DNA of 64,000 nucleotides from the sequence record OP870145.1; one strand, written 5' to 3'. The notes under the pieces are model-generated. The model was not told the origin of the DNA. It saw only the letters and a program-made list of their open reading frames with translations, and did no database searches. The position numbers and the translations under genes are program-made. Below, one piece after another: positions 6,978-46,473 of this stretch; position 1 is the first letter of the stretch, and every line of letters begins with the position of its first letter. Origin of the DNA: Escherichia phage vB_Eco_F26.

Positions 6978-7308
6978 TTTCACCTCTTAGCTCAATTCAT
7001 AGATCTATTATATCATAATATTTGAAGATCTATCTTAAAGCATAGAGGATATCAGTTATCTAAGTAAGCAGTATGCTTGGAACACTTTCTCCATCATCTT
7101 TTTAAATTCATGAATATCTATGTAATGATCATTAATATCAGCGCGATATAAAAAGTCTAAAAACTTTTTATGGGTATTAGAGTTAATTCAGAAACATGGC
7201 TTTCCCAATATCCAACACCAGTTTTATTTGGGAAAAATGAAATTTTCATGTATTGGTCAACATAGAAAATACCAAAATTTTCAATAGCAATAGAAATATT
7301 AATTAATT

Positions 7309-7524
7309 TCATACATTCATCAACTTAGCCGCTTCAAGAGCTGCATCTAGTGAATCAAATTGGTCAACATATTCAATCAATTCGCCATAATTGGCATATA
7401 ACCACCATTGGCTAAATTCATACTCAAGGATGAATCCGTTTCCTTCAATTTGAGTTAAACCAATGCCATTTGTATTTACTTCATATCCAGCAAGACGCAA
7501 ATCGTTAATAAGAGCTTCGTTCAT
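7309..7524 (-). CDS. Hypothetical small protein
   Basis: 71-aa co-oriented ORF. Confidence 0.4.
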   Translation of the reverse strand: MNEALINDLRLAGYEVNTNGIGLTQIEGNGFILEYEFSQWWLYANYGELIEYVDQFDSLDAALEAAKLMNV

Positions 7525-11110: not shown

Positions 11111-12400
11111 GTTTTACTCGTTTTACCATTTCTTTCATTTTACCTAAATTCCATGGAACAACGCTAGGAGTTCCAAGATATCCGCATGTTCTTCTTATTG
11201 TGTTCATCTTTTTAGGATCAGTTTCTCCACAAATAGAACAAACAAATCCGTTTTCAGTAGGAGTCATTTCATGGGTACTTCCACATGTAAAACATTTATC
11301 TACTGGCATATTAACACCAAAATAATCTAAATGTTGTGCAGCATAATCCCATACGGCCTCAAGGCCTTTCAAGTTATTTTTCATATCAGGAAGTTCAACA
11401 TAAGAAATGTGACCACCTGTCGCAATGAAATGATACGGAGCTTCGCGAGAAATCTTTTCAAACGGAGTAATATTTTCTTCTACTGAAACGTGGAAACTGT
11501 TAGTGTACCAGCCTTTATCGGTAACATCTTTTACACTTCCATATTTTTCGGTATCAAGTTTACAGAAGCGATAGCACAGGTTTTCAGCAGGAGTAGAATA
11601 CAAACTAAAAGCAAAACCGGTTCTTTCAGTCCACTGCTTAAGACGAGCATTCATTTTAGTCAAAATTTCCTGTCCAATATCACGACCGACAAGAATATTC
11701 AATTCGTGAATACCAATGTATCCTAGGGATACTGAACTTCTACCGTTTTTAAATAACTCAATTATGTCATCATCAGGTTTAAGACGAACCCCGAATGCAC
11801 CTTCTTGGTAAAGAATAGGAGCAACAGTAGCTTTAACTCCTTTTAAGGAACTAATTCTACACATCAAAGCTTCAAAACACAGGTCCATTCGCTCGTCGAA
11901 CAATTCAGTAAATTTCTGTTCATTGAACTGTGTTCCAATATAAGAATCTAACGCGATGCGAGGAAGATTCAGTGTTACAACGCCAAGATTATTACGACCG
12001 TCAAGAATTTCATTACCGGTCGAATCTTTCCATACGCTCAAGAAACTACGGCAGCCCATTGGAGAAACTGGAACTGAAGAACCAGTGATAGCTTTATTGT
12101 TCTTAGCTGAAATAATATCAGGATACATTCTTTTGCTTGCACATTCTAACGCAAGTTGTTTAATATCATAGTTTGGATCATCTTTATAAAGATTAACACC
12201 TTCTTCAACAAACATAACAAGTTTAGGAAAAATAGGAGTTATTCCATCACGACCAAGACCTTTAATGCGGTTTTTAAGAATTGCCTTCTGAATCATTCGT
12301 TCGGTCCAATCGGTTCCTGTACCAAATGTAATTGTTACAAAAGGCGTTTGTCCGTTTGAACTAAAAAGAGTATTTACTTCATCATTATATTCAGCATGAG
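11103..12400 (-). CDS. nrdD: Anaerobic ribonucleoside-triphosphate reductase NrdD, exon 2 (C-terminal ~430 aa); 5' boundary approximate
   Basis: Glycyl-radical motif RRTCGYLG and C-terminal Cys cluster; gene interrupted by an intron carrying an endonuclease ORF, as in T4 nrdD (sunY). Confidence 0.85.
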
Positions 12401-13430
12401 TCGCAAATTCATGCCCGTTTATATGAAACAACAAAATTTGGATAGTCCATAGATATGCAACGTTCTTTTATAGCGCTAGGATGAAAATTTAGCGCTTTAG
12501 CTGCTTCTATATAAGACGTATACTTAATACCGTCAACAACCACATATTCAGGAACTTTATGAATAGTAGTCTTAATACTCAAAACAAGAGGATGAGTTTC
12601 GACTTCACTTTCAGTGCAATTTAAATATTCCGCTGCTTTTTTAAAACTTCTAAAAGTTTTATTTTTAAGCTTTATCGATACTTGTTTTTTACTTTTTCGA
12701 CTATTGATATTATTTTGCACATGTTCCTTAGATCTTCCGTTTTTAGCATAATATTCAGCTACAGAAGATTTTATATTGTTTTTATGAGATTCGGATAACA
12801 CTTTACCCTTATGAGCATCTCTTAATTTTTGAATATGTTCTTCAGTATCCGGATGCTTATAAAACTTTTTACCGCCTATGGATTTATTTAAACATTTTTT
12901 GCTATAAAAATATTTACGTATGACCTCTTCTTCATGTTTTAATGCATCTTTATAACTATCAAATGTTTTTAAAATTATCCATTTAGTAGGTGTATCAGTT
13001 TTTAAGCGTTCATTTATATACTTAGATGACGTTGTGTAAGTTTTCCAGTTTGTGGGCTTGTTTTTAATTGTTCTAAATTTTTTATAACCGATATAAATGT
13101 CGCCATTAGAAAACTTAACTAAGTATGTAAATGCGTCTTTATCTTTTATTTTAGTACAACGTCTTTTTATCCATTTCATTGTTTCACCTCGTATTCATAA
13201 GATAATCTTATTTATACAAGATGACTGCTGCATGTCGCCATGCAGATTAGACTATATCTTCATCTTTCGATGCCGGCCGTTTCGAATAGCATTAGCTTCT
13301 ATTCTACACCGCTACATTCATCACGGTTAGTCGTTAGGCATTTAGTTCAAAAGAACATTTAGCACGGGATTGTCTACTAGAGAGGTTCCCCGTTTAGACC
13401 GGTTTTACATGAGCCTGAATTAAATTAACT
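12400..13430 (-). mobile_element. Group I intron in nrdD (approximate bounds) carrying a GIY-YIG endonuclease ORF
   Basis: About 1 kb separates the two nrdD coding segments; contains a 256-aa GIY-YIG ORF and a ~240-nt ORF-free structured region (13180-13420). Confidence 0.75.
12409..13179 (-). CDS. Intron-encoded GIY-YIG homing endonuclease (I-TevII-like)
   Basis: 256 aa; FTYLVKFSNGDIYIGYKK GIY-YIG module; lies inside the nrdD intron. Confidence 0.7.
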   Translation of the reverse strand: MKWIKRRCTKIKDKDAFTYLVKFSNGDIYIGYKKFRTIKNKPTNWKTYTTSSKYINERLKTDTPTKWIILKTFDSYKDALKHEEEVIRKYFYSKKCLNKSIGGKKFYKHPDTEEHIQKLRDAHKGKVLSESHKNNIKSSVAEYYAKNGRSKEHVQNNINSRKSKKQVSIKLKNKTFRSFKKAAEYLNCTESEVETHPLVLSIKTTIHKVPEYVVVDGIKYTSYIEAAKALNFHPSAIKERCISMDYPNFVVSYKRA

Positions 13431-37873: not shown

Positions 37874-38137
37874 TTATTTCATATTATTGAAATATTCTTC
37901 TGCGATTTCATCGTTATCGTGGTAAACTTTAGAAGACAGTTTAACATAACCTTCAGCAGTGAACATATTAATCACAACTTTTACAGTATACCACTGACCG
38001 TCTTCATTACCCATTACTGCGTAAGTTTCAAACATCGGATGGTCAGGACCGATAACTTTAATATCATTCACTGTACGACCGAAATCTTCTGAAACGCATT
38101 TCATAAAGAAGTTGAACAGTTCGCCGTAATTATCCAT
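37874..38137 (-). CDS. Hypothetical small protein (start region duplicated in the adjacent tandem repeat)
   Basis: 87 aa from ATG at 38137 (MDNYGELFNFF...), GGAG 7 nt upstream; track ORF uses an upstream TTG. Confidence 0.5.
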   Translation of the reverse strand: MDNYGELFNFFMKCVSEDFGRTVNDIKVIGPDHPMFETYAVMGNEDGQWYTVKVVINMFTAEGYVKLSSKVYHDNDEIAEEYFNNMK

Positions 38138-38180
38138 TTCATTCTCCAAGTTGTTTTCTGTATCAGTAGTTGATAGTTGT

Positions 38181-38210
38181 ATAGTACCACGGAAGAACAG
38201 AGATGTAAAC
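38181..38210 (-). promoter_or_regulatory. Early promoter (-35 GTTTAC / -10 TACTAT), conserved module; copy 1
   Basis: Minus strand ttcacaaaactGTTTACatctctgttcttccgtggTACTAT. Confidence 0.55.
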
Positions 38211-38530
38211 AGTTTTGTGAAAAATTTTTTAAAAAGTTTTAGGGAATTCTAGGGAAGGGAGGGGCAATTAAAGGATAGGATAATATATTATAAAGGGTAG
38301 AAACTAAATGATGCCTAGAGAGGTCCAGAAAGGCCTAGATGCCAAAAAGCCCTATCATTTAGATAGGGATTTAAAATTATTTATCTAGTTTAGTTATTAT
38401 AGCTTCTACGGCAGCTTTTAGCTTAGATGCGGTGTTAATACGATTTTTAATTTCAGTATACGCGAACAGTTCGCCGTAATTATCCATTTCATTCTCCAAG
38501 TTGTTTTCTGTATCAGTAGTTGATAGTTGT

Positions 38531-38560
38531 ATAGTACCACGGAAGAACAGAGATGTAAAC
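38531..38560 (-). promoter_or_regulatory. Early promoter, duplicate copy 2 inside the tandem repeat
   Basis: Identical to 38181-38210 at +350. Confidence 0.5.
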
Positions 38561-38726
38561 AGTTTTGTGAAAAATTTTTTAAAAAGTTTTAGGGAATTCT
38601 AGGGAAGGGAGGGGCAATTAAAGGATAGGATAATATATTATAAAGGGTAGAAACTAAATGATGCCTAGAGAGGTCCAGAAAGGCCTAGATGCCAAAAAGC
38701 CCTATCATTTAGATAGGGATTTAAAA

Positions 38727-39290
38727 TTATTTATCTAGTTTAGTTATTATAGCTTCTACGGCAGCTTTTAGCTTAGATGCGGTGTTAATACGATTTTTAA
38801 TTTCAGTATACGCATCGCCAAGAACATCAAGGCTATCAGAATAAACACTTACACTATTGCGTTCGCTATTTGAAATAGAACCTTTAGTTTTACGATCAAA
38901 ATCGGTGTACACGTCTTGAAGATCACGCGCTGCCTTCTTTGCATCATCCAATGCATCAAGAGCTTTATTCAAAGCATTAACGTATTTTTTAGTGTCGAAC
39001 ATATTCTTAGAAATTTTAGCAGGTGCACGTTCAGGAGTAGCTAATACAGATTTAGGAACCTGAGCGCCAGATGCCAATTTCTTAGAAATTTTGAAAAACG
39101 CTTTATTGAATTTATTTTCTTGACTCATCGTAAAAGAACTATTATCGATGTTGTACATTTCAATAGCTTTAGCTTTCCACTTAAGAAAATCGCCGCGGTC
39201 TTTTGGGTCCAAGTGGAAAAATACTTTAGTAAGATCTGCTTCAGATGGTAATTTTGCTGCTTCGGTTAAAAATTCGGCATAGGTTTTCAT
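38727..39290 (-). CDS. Internal-protein (IP)-like capsid-injected protein
   Basis: 187 aa; N-terminus MKTYAEFLTEA matches the IP capsid-targeting consensus. Confidence 0.65.
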   Translation of the reverse strand: MKTYAEFLTEAAKLPSEADLTKVFFHLDPKDRGDFLKWKAKAIEMYNIDNSSFTMSQENKFNKAFFKISKKLASGAQVPKSVLATPERAPAKISKNMFDTKKYVNALNKALDALDDAKKAARDLQDVYTDFDRKTKGSISNSERNSVSVYSDSLDVLGDAYTEIKNRINTASKLKAAVEAIITKLDK

Positions 39291-39385
39291 TTAAAATCCT
39301 TGAAATAATTTATCGGTTGGTTATTAATTATTTATTACTTTGTTATTATCCGTAACAGCATTCTCTATGTGATTCAAACTAAAAA

Positions 39386-39405
39386 CCCCAACCTTTCGGT
39401 CGGGG
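39386..39405 (-). terminator. Rho-independent terminator (CCCCGACC-GAAA-GGTTGGGG followed by T-run on minus strand)
   Basis: 8-bp stem, GAAA tetraloop, TTTTT. Confidence 0.6.
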
Positions 39406-39414
39406 CTAAGAATG

Positions 39415-39887
39415 TTATTTGATTTGTTTAGCAGACCAAATGCGGTCTTTGATGATTTTTTGAATGTCTTCAACATACTCAAGAGAGTGAACATGTGGAT
39501 TATCTTTGAAACTATAAGCACGGGCTAACTTTTGGCCTTCGGTTTTGATTACTAAAAGCTCTTTAAGGATAGCTTCATATTTAGCGATAATTCCTTTAAC
39601 GATATTTTTTCTTGTGCAGCTTTAGGATCTGCTTTAGGAGCAGGTTTACCCGAAGCCTTTGCAAAAGCAGCACCAGTAGCAACTAAACTTTTCCAGGCCA
39701 TACTAACCGCATTTCCTGTAAATCCTTCTGCTTTCATGTCGCGAGCAAACTGGAATCGTGATTCGTCAGAAGCATCTTTATAGGAATATTTACCCGCTGC
39801 AATGGCTGCTTTTGCGACAGCTTGAATTTCGGTGCTAGATGCTTCATTTAACACCGCTTCATTTAAAAATTGAGCATATGATTTCAT
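39415..39887 (-). pseudogene. IP-like gene disrupted by a frameshift at a homopolymer (or sequencing error)
   Basis: Frame 1 (MKSYAQFLNEA..., capsid-targeting-like) stops at 39552; a +2 frame continues from the T6 run at 39605-39610 to a stop at 39415 right before the terminator; restoring one base would give a ~157-aa protein. Confidence 0.5.
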
Positions 39888-39927: not shown

Positions 39928-39935
39928 TATTTATA
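39928..39935 (-). promoter_or_regulatory. Late promoter TATAAATA
   Basis: Exact TATAAATA on minus strand ~40 nt upstream of the IP-like gene start. Confidence 0.55.
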
Positions 39936-39943
39936 CTAAAAAG

Positions 39944-39963
39944 CCCCAACCTTTCGGTCGGGG
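39944..39963 (-). terminator. Rho-independent terminator (second copy of the CCCCGACC-GAAA-GGTTGGGG hairpin + T-run)
   Basis: Near-identical to 39386-39405; ends the tRNA/ncRNA transcription unit. Confidence 0.6.
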
Positions 39964-39970
39964 CTAAGCC

Positions 39971-41163: not shown

Positions 41164-41171
41164 AAATTTTC

Positions 41172-41657
41172 TTATTTTATGTAATATTTATTTAAAAACT
41201 TTCTAGCTTGAGTATGGCTAACATTTATAGCGTTTGCATAATTTTTAATAAAACCTCGTTCATCCATATTAAAATTTTCTAATATTTTTAATCGTCTAGT
41301 TATCTCATCTTGGCTTAAGGTACTTGCATTATTTTTAGAAATTTTTTCTAAGGACTGTGCCGAGTGTTTTCGACCATTAAAATTAAAATTTTTAGATTTT
41401 GGAGGAAATCTATTATTTAGTCTCGCATCTTTTGTATTTTGATTATTAGTTGCGCAATATATGTTATTTAATGAATATGGTCCTTTATCGCCGAAACGGC
41501 ACATGCAGTATTCATGACCCTTTCTTCCACGCTTATCATATTTTCCCGTTGATTTCCACCAATGCAGCCATTCATCAAAAGTTAAATTCCATTCAATGTT
41601 TCTACGTATAGCAGAATTCCGCTGAGAAATATATTTTGCATAATCTTCTTTCATCAC
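41172..41657 (-). CDS. Putative HNH-type homing-endonuclease-like protein embedded in the tRNA cluster
   Basis: 161 aa; HEYCMCRFGDKGPYSLNNIYCATNNQN His/Cys/Asn-rich core; splits the tRNA cluster. Confidence 0.4.
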   Translation of the reverse strand: MMKEDYAKYISQRNSAIRRNIEWNLTFDEWLHWWKSTGKYDKRGRKGHEYCMCRFGDKGPYSLNNIYCATNNQNTKDARLNNRFPPKSKNFNFNGRKHSAQSLEKISKNNASTLSQDEITRRLKILENFNMDERGFIKNYANAINVSHTQARKFLNKYYIK

Positions 41658-41701
41658 AAATTTCTCTACTTATTCAATACACCAAGCTAAATCAGCAAAA
41701 C

Positions 41702-46021: not shown

Positions 46022-46473
46022 TATGCCCCCTTAAAGCCAAGAGCTCGTAATCCATCTTCTGTTAGAATTCTAAATTTTATTCCACGCTTTTCAGCTAAAG
46101 ATTGTGCTGCTTTCCATTTGTCAGTGTTCACAGACCAGGTATAAATTTCATTCATAAATCTTTTCTTCGCTGCAGTTGTTAGATGTGCTGGTTTAACTGG
46201 TGGTTGTGTTTCTTTTTTAGGTTTTATTTCAATAAAAAATTCTTGCCCAGAAGAATCTTTCATCCAAATATCCATGAAGTATCTACGTTTTTTCCCTTCT
46301 GCATTACAAAAATAAGGAATTACTGCTGTTTCACTACCCCATGCAATAATTTCTGGATTTTTATCTAACCATTCAAAAAAGAATTTTTCCCAATTTGATC
46401 TATACGTAATTTTTTTAGGGTCACCTCTATACTTTGATATATTTTTAGGAACCCATTTTCCAGAATATGCCAT
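46021..46473 (-). CDS. 4: Head completion protein gp4
   Basis: 150 aa, same length as T4 gp4; synteny. Confidence 0.88.

Follow-up and report, generated by a model that had tools for sequence, protein, structure and literature searches.

A probable slippage allele at a homopolymeric A-tract in a leader-bearing accessory gene of a T4-like coliphage

The split gene and its surroundings

The window analysed here, a 64-kb stretch of DNA, belongs to the Tequatrovirus group of T4-like coliphages and is 95-97% identical to many phage records, none of which it matches exactly. On its minus strand, between tRNA-Arg and e.8 and beside the tRNA cluster, where T4 has rnaC and rnaD, lies a gene in two pieces. 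Table 1 presents the coordinates of these pieces and of the surrounding features. The first piece is an open reading frame (ORF) with the same product as WBF80172.1 of Escherichia phage vB_Eco_F26, the one other record in which this exact product occurs and possibly the same genome; the ORF encodes a capsid-targeting leader, a predicted N-domain of three helices and a linker, followed by 17 out-of-frame codons (ISLKELSLNMKLSLKSF), so placed that the early stop falls 17 codons past a run of six A's. The second piece, read in the -1 (equivalently +2) frame from 39606, is NIVKGIIAKYEAILKELLVIKTEGQKLARAYSFKDNPHVHSLEYVEDIQKIIKDRIWSAKQIK (KNIVKGII...WSAKQIK), and no start codon of its own is found between 39606 and 39415. 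With one A added to the run, the junction reads GAA AAA AAT (E93 K94 N95) and a protein of 157 amino acids results, which is identical to the annotated 157-aa proteins of phages ime09, G50, ESh26 and JB75 or differs from them by one or two residues. The split arrangement is not a product of chance, since PHROG 2280, a family of unknown annotated function, aligns with the full length of the restored protein, shift site included (E 1.7e-60, profile positions 1-172 of 178). An earlier note on this DNA had described a leader-bearing frame (MKSYAQFLNEA...) ending at 39552, a plus-strand T6 with a shifted frame open as far as 39415, a terminator abutting that stop, and a protein of about 157 aa recoverable by one extra base. 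All of these coordinates proved exact, a terminator scan placed the hairpin directly after the shifted-frame stop, and the PHROG match spans residues 1-157.

Table 1. Positions of the split gene and of other features in the 64-kb window.
Feature	Position	Strand	Remarks
Truncated ORF, 111 aa	39552..39887	(-)	ATG at 39887, stop 39554-39552; protein starts MKSYAQFLNEAVLNEASS
Capsid-targeting leader	39887-39858	(-)	Codons 1-10 of the truncated ORF
A6 homopolymer (plus-strand T6)	39605..39610	(-)	Site of the 1-nt deletion
-1 (= +2) frame past A6	39415..39606	(-)	Ancestral residues 95-157 and stop TAA 39417-39415
Downstream intrinsic terminator hairpin	39384..39407	(-)	Terminator scan; directly 3' of the stop
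Upstream intrinsic terminator hairpin	39942..39965	(-)	Terminator scan; 97% identical to the downstream hairpin (39939-39968 vs 39381-39410)
Late-promoter motif TATAAATA	39928..39935	(-)	41 nt upstream of the ATG; read from the sequence
Shine-Dalgarno AGGA	39897-39894	(-)	
Tandem paralogue, 187 aa	38727..39290	(-)	MKTYAEFLTEA..., intact; PHROG 2280, E 8.1e-53
Tandem direct duplication, 350 bp	38114-38463 and 38464-38813		300 nt 100% identical (38114-38413 = 38464-38763)
Chimeric ORF, 40 aa	38377-38499	(-)	First 12 residues of e.8 joined to the final 28 of the paralogue
Third leader-bearing ORF, 100 aa	34278-34580		MKTYQEFITEARV...
Part of the tRNA cluster without the tRNA-Thr of G50	41164-41701		
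ORF in the place of tRNA-Thr, 161 aa	41172-41657	(-)	No Pfam match
Insertion in the nrdD homologue	12389-13429		About 1 kb vs G50; two exons in different frames
Small hypothetical ORF	about 7059-7312		13-bp deletion vs G50 at about 7177
T7 run in gene 4	46410-46416		

The motif TATAAATA, which we take to be the T4 late-promoter consensus, is annotated as a 'predicted late promoter' at the homologous position in fPS-65, and the upstream hairpin corresponds in place to an annotated terminator in both G50 and fPS-65. Two nearly identical hairpins flank the frameshifted gene, with the late promoter directly after the upstream one. This layout resembles the PeSLs, terminator/promoter cassettes through which modules have been suggested to be shuffled in T4-like phages (PMC4122927).

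The gene directly downstream encodes a 187-aa protein that is 100% identical to its G50 counterpart. Because both it and the split gene match PHROG 2280, the two are tandem paralogues. In the same region, relative to G50, is a tandem direct duplication whose unit comprises the 5' end of e.8 and its upstream region together with the 3' end and terminator of the 187-aa paralogue, and which creates a short chimeric ORF. The duplication is either a recent event or an assembly artefact.

Several other regions of the window also depart from G50. The insertion in the nrdD homologue probably represents a group I intron and may include a homing-endonuclease gene; nrdD of T4 is a known case of a group I intron. 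The 13-bp deletion in the small ORF shifts the frame within the homologue of an 89-aa hypothetical gene (G50_00066). The tRNA cluster is without the tRNA-Thr that G50 has between tRNA-Met and tRNA-Ser and holds about 0.5 kb in its place, where the 161-aa ORF is found; this region is possibly a mobile or homing element.

Protein family, leader and predicted structure

The leader MKSYAQFLNE retains M1, K2, Y4, F7 and E10 of the T4-type leader MKTYQEFIAE. In the capsid-targeting sequence of IPIII, Tyr4 and Phe7 serve targeting while position 8 and Glu10 serve processing (PMC9026906). A candidate site for gp21 is present at L8-N9-E10/A11, and a second LNE/A occurs at residues 13-16. From these leader residues, the protein is putatively capsid-internal, and cleavage by gp21 would be predicted after Glu10.

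The designation 'IP-like' in the earlier note holds for the N-terminal targeting leader and fails for the mature part, which is unrelated to IPI, IPII and IPIII of T4. With these three proteins the split gene shares the 10-residue leader, Tyr4, Phe7, an aliphatic residue at position 8, Glu10, a late promoter, small size and a variable region beside the tRNA cluster. It differs from them in a mature part without detectable similarity, in its locus and in its family, the T4 proteins belonging to PHROGs 4363, 7857 and 5341. When the G50 proteins from the ipI and ipII/ipIII loci were compared by BLASTP, nothing significant was found for the 157-aa protein, and the 187-aa paralogue showed similarity at the level of the leader only. 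Identity with 'ipIV' of T2, which is also 474 nt long, was considered and rejected: the 157-aa product of the G50 ipII/ipIII locus, used in place of T2 ipIV on the assumption that the two are homologous, lies at another locus and has only the leader in common. Elsewhere in the window, a third leader-bearing ORF appears to be an IPII homologue, and counterparts of the G50 ipI-locus genes and of the second ipII/ipIII-locus gene are absent, a pattern of internal-protein gene turnover.

Searches of Pfam with the restored protein and its neighbours returned sub-threshold noise only. An AlphaFold2 (AF2) model of the restored protein, built from 8 sequences (pLDDT 74), places a three-helix N-domain at residues 18-71 and a C-terminal helical hairpin at residues 88-155; the leader and the linker between the two domains (76-87) are disordered. 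By this model, the frameshift at codon 94/95 is at a domain boundary and would remove the C-terminal hairpin. Compared with BFVD, the model matched members of its own family only, including truncated versions of 144 and 97 aa, and therefore the fold gave no functional lead.

Run length among relatives

Relative to its orthologues, the window carries a deletion of one base. In ime09, G50, ESh26, JB75 and ESh34 the gene is a single coding sequence of 474 nt for 157 aa with seven A's (A7), and most orthologues examined likewise carry A7 and an intact gene and do not end at the early stop. An 81-nt probe around the run matched 335 records without a single exact match; among the best 30 of these, 28 were one base longer than the window and 2 were two bases longer.

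The shortened run is not confined to the window. A6 alleles are also found in Shigella phage SfPhi01, in Escherichia phage 235Ecol030PP, in the metagenome contig UMIC01010870 and in the Logan assembly ERR4993045, the last with 8 nt differences from the window inside the gene and with different flanks. A6 is further found in ENA ERZ27280864 and Logan ERR2241956, of an orthologous lineage with about 76% protein identity. In the other direction, A8 occurs in ph0021, PsgM02F, teqhal and ENA ERZ27280638, and A9 in Yersinia phage fPS-65 and Escherichia phage ECO4. Several of these alleles can be set against close relatives. SfPhi01 (A6) and ECO4 (A9) have a common haplotype, other members of which are one base longer than SfPhi01; BECP11, a confirmed A7, differs from SfPhi01 at the run only, and for NBEco003, CAM-21 and phage 107 A7 was deduced from match length only. 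A6, A7 and A9 are thus all seen on one haplotype with undamaged downstream frames, as would be compatible with two-way switching. The haplotype of fPS-65 (A9) is that of OE5505 and of an IMG/VR contig, both A7. Counted as an excess of length changes at the between-genome level, the pattern points to at least five, and probably at least eight, independent length events on backgrounds identical or nearly identical to A7 relatives. All variants examined retain an open, conserved downstream frame, and the events would therefore be recent.

The variants are a small minority. With the whole 111-aa product as query, 8 of the 511 phage records that hold the gene (6 phages) were found to read into the shifted tail; they are two A6 phages, two A9 phages, OE5505, and the RefSeq duplicates of fPS-65, ECO4 and OE5505. 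No match was obtained by tblastn with a 37-aa chimeric peptide across the shift, whose shortness and low complexity are the probable cause. At least three further phages have A8, and with them the variants make up roughly 1.5-2% of phages. Overall, variant alleles amount to some 1-2% of sequenced phages and locally up to about 8%: in the best 60 matches to SfPhi01, which represent about 49 unique phages, 4 phages have a deviating run. Seven of eight metagenome pattern matches were kept, the eighth (L031) being an unrelated chance match, and one of these seven JGI loci deviates in run length; a pattern scan of IMG/VR found two loci only, both A7. Laboratory passage could have inflated the variant frequency across the databases.

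OE5505 presents a lesion of its own. At this locus (L017, MK373785.1) it keeps A7 and has a different 1-nt insertion near codon 33, and its paralogue is annotated in two pieces. Disruption of both PHROG 2280 members in this phage fits their dispensability.

Explanations for the shortened run

Long A/T runs are rare in this genome. The window has a single run of seven or more (the T7 of gene 4), where base composition would predict 35 and dinucleotide composition 64; runs of six or more come to 69 in total. The same avoidance is seen in coding sequence (50 kb): of 13 [EKQ]-K-[NK] tripeptides, not one is written with seven or more A's, codon usage predicting 8, and Lys-Lys is encoded as AAAAAA 18 times out of 74, where 44 would be expected. 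G50 has only three runs of seven in 68 kb, the tract of this gene among them. Given the rarity of such runs, few sites in the genome should be more mutable than this tract, which sits in a dispensable gene.

Homopolymer slippage has precedents in this phage group. Classical slippage hot spots in rII and e of T4 were reportedly described by Streisinger. In T2, T4 and T6, homopolymers of at least six bases undergo frequent, reversible +/-1 frameshifts, and two of them, the A-run of T2 agt (gene bases 288-296) and the A6 run of T4 rIIA, have been presented as contingency loci whose trade-offs relate to defence (Gomez, Barrick and Waters 2025, bioRxiv 10.1101/2025.10.21.683753). In the same study, variant reads amounted to about 0.45-0.5% at a 7-base run of T2 as opposed to about 0.05% or less at 6-base runs (10.1101/2025.10.21.683753). 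The supplementary SSR tables of that preprint list nothing between e.8 and tRNA-Arg in T2 or T6, and the PHROG 2280 gene is absent from T4; the tract therefore lies outside the preprint's coverage. Like the T-even loci, the split gene has an A-run of at least six bases in coding sequence (A6 in the window, A7 in the majority), belongs to the non-essential genes, shifts by +/-1 with the rest of the gene intact and presumably does so by replication slippage. It differs from them in having +2 alleles as well, and in that its variation is between natural genomes only, whereas switching at the T-even loci was measured within a stock. A more distant parallel is found in Campylobacter phages, where hypermutable poly-G tracts in receptor-binding genes have demonstrated effects on host range. 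There too homopolymer length switches the form of a phage protein; however, those are G-tracts in receptor-binding genes, and here an A-tract lies in a putative capsid-internal protein.

We consider it likely that the A6 run of the window is the mutation-driven length variant (-1) of a tract of seven A's that is hypermutable and lies in an accessory gene that is not essential. One A would be lost through strand slippage as the phage DNA polymerase copies the run, a mechanism that we infer. Translation of the message made from the late promoter, which would drive the gene, would then leave the ancestral frame after Lys94 and stop 17 codons on. The product would be a precursor of 111 aa that retains the leader, the conserved N-domain of three helices and the linker and is deprived of the C-terminal helical hairpin. 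The allele would be young, and because the downstream frame is undamaged it should revert at high frequency. No selection would be needed: mutation pressure at a 7-base run combined with single-plaque isolation would give the observed frequency, in that a stock with about 0.5% variants, sampled by single plaques, would put about 0.5-2% variant alleles into the databases.

An alternative that we regard as unlikely, yet worth weighing, is that the tract is a selected switch by which an injected capsid protein toggles between a two-domain and an N-domain-only form and so hedges between hosts or defences; the C-terminal domain, for example, might betray the phage to one defence system and be required to counter a different one. 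The A-run is unbroken in every orthologue examined at the DNA level, including those with proteins of 76-83% identity, and the rest of the genome breaks such runs, as the tripeptide and Lys-Lys counts above attest. Retention of A7 in a run-avoiding genome could accordingly mean selection for mutability rather than neutrality. In the AF2 model the shift falls at the boundary of the linker and the C-domain, and the N-domain would therefore still be complete in the product of OFF alleles. Counter-defence roles are known for the internal proteins of T4, and trade-offs at contingency loci have been shown for T2 agt and T4 rIIA. However, Glu and Lys are mostly encoded by GAA (85%) and AAA (77%), which makes A7 the default encoding of E-K-N; the mutation pressure set out above explains the variant frequency by itself; and neither form of the protein has a known phenotype or function. 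A second A7 run is moreover kept in gene 4, a gene described as essential in T4. If this alternative were true, natural T4-like populations would hold standing variation against host defence by way of an anti-defence 'internal protein' switch, and the A6, A7, A8 and A9 alleles of wild isolates and metagenomes would be its visible states.

It is quite improbable that the real phage has A7 and an intact gene and that the missing base is an error of sequencing or assembly, one of the alternatives raised in the earlier note. A single-base difference in a homopolymer is a classic error site, and the perfect 350-bp tandem duplication in the window might hint at assembly problems. Against this, the window was aligned with G50 at the DNA level and searched by tblastn with about 110 annotated proteins of that phage, and among the about 85 genes with a homologue a 1-nt homopolymer frameshift was found in this gene only; the other differences were a 13-bp indel in a small ORF and the 1-kb insertion in nrdD. 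The other 68 A/T runs of at least six in the window include none with a gene-breaking length difference. A6 also recurs in independent phages and in metagenome assemblies. Contigs named k141_... in ENA are, we assume, in the style of MEGAHIT short-read assembly. For the +2 allele, fPS-65 was sequenced by Illumina MiSeq at >200x (PMC7917993) and its assembly is otherwise free of frameshifts: in 12 kb either side of the gene, fPS-65 and ECO4 have 43 homologues of G50 proteins and a frameshift in this gene only. The A7 run of gene 4 is intact in both of these phages, the two in which it was checked. The variant isolates come from several laboratories, and an artefact confined to one run that yields -1, +1 and +2 across them is unlikely.

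An old pseudogene, inactivated long ago and in the course of being lost, is very improbable. The gene is accessory and T4 is without it, OE5505 has other lesions in both paralogues, and the second paralogue is absent from SfPhi01, ECO4 and 235Ecol030PP. Nevertheless, neither stops nor indels nor an excess of change mark the 63 codons of the downstream frame, its protein is identical to that of intact orthologues, and the closest haplotypes carry A7.

Programmed recoding, in which the split would be the designed state and -1 ribosomal frameshifting or transcriptional slippage on the A-run would join the frames, is scarcely credible, since about 98% of the orthologues (a rough count; demonstrated where examined and otherwise deduced) have the gene in one frame and since the zero frame GAA AAA AUA offers the heptamer A AAA AUA, which is not of the X XXY YYZ type. 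A search of the 85 nt downstream found no stimulatory RNA structure (MFE -9.5 kcal/mol, z +0.53, 134 of 200 shuffles folding at least as well), and A6 is well below the run length for efficient slippage by E. coli RNA polymerase. The dnaX gene, with its programmed -1 frameshifting on A AAA AAG, resembles the split gene in that Lys codons lie in an A-rich context where tRNA-Lys could undergo a -1 slip. Unlike dnaX, the split gene has no canonical zero-frame heptamer, upstream SD-like stimulator or downstream stem-loop, and its two-frame layout is a rare allele instead of the conserved state. A -1 slip of tRNA-Lys on A_AAA_A (39609-39606) would all the same recreate the ancestral E-K-N-I exactly, and low-level leakiness is therefore plausible, with trace amounts of full-length protein a possibility. 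The slippery site proposed in the earlier note is accordingly not borne out, whereas its suggestion of a genuine or phase-variable allele is favoured by the recurrence of A6, A8 and A9 on independent backgrounds, phase variation being possible.

The window, then, probably holds a real, young slippage allele at a hypermutable A-tract, one that is probably reversible; slippage and reversibility are what we infer. For annotation, the pieces between 39887 and 39415 are one gene with a tract-length frameshift, as opposed to two ORFs or a recoding site. The locus is a new, natural example of a T-even homopolymer hot spot, at a tract beyond those covered in the earlier preprint. The laboratory claim of T-even contingency loci gains evidence from the field, in that independent wild phages carry A6, A7, A8 and A9, and the leader-bearing PHROG 2280 family offers a tractable test case for loci of this kind.
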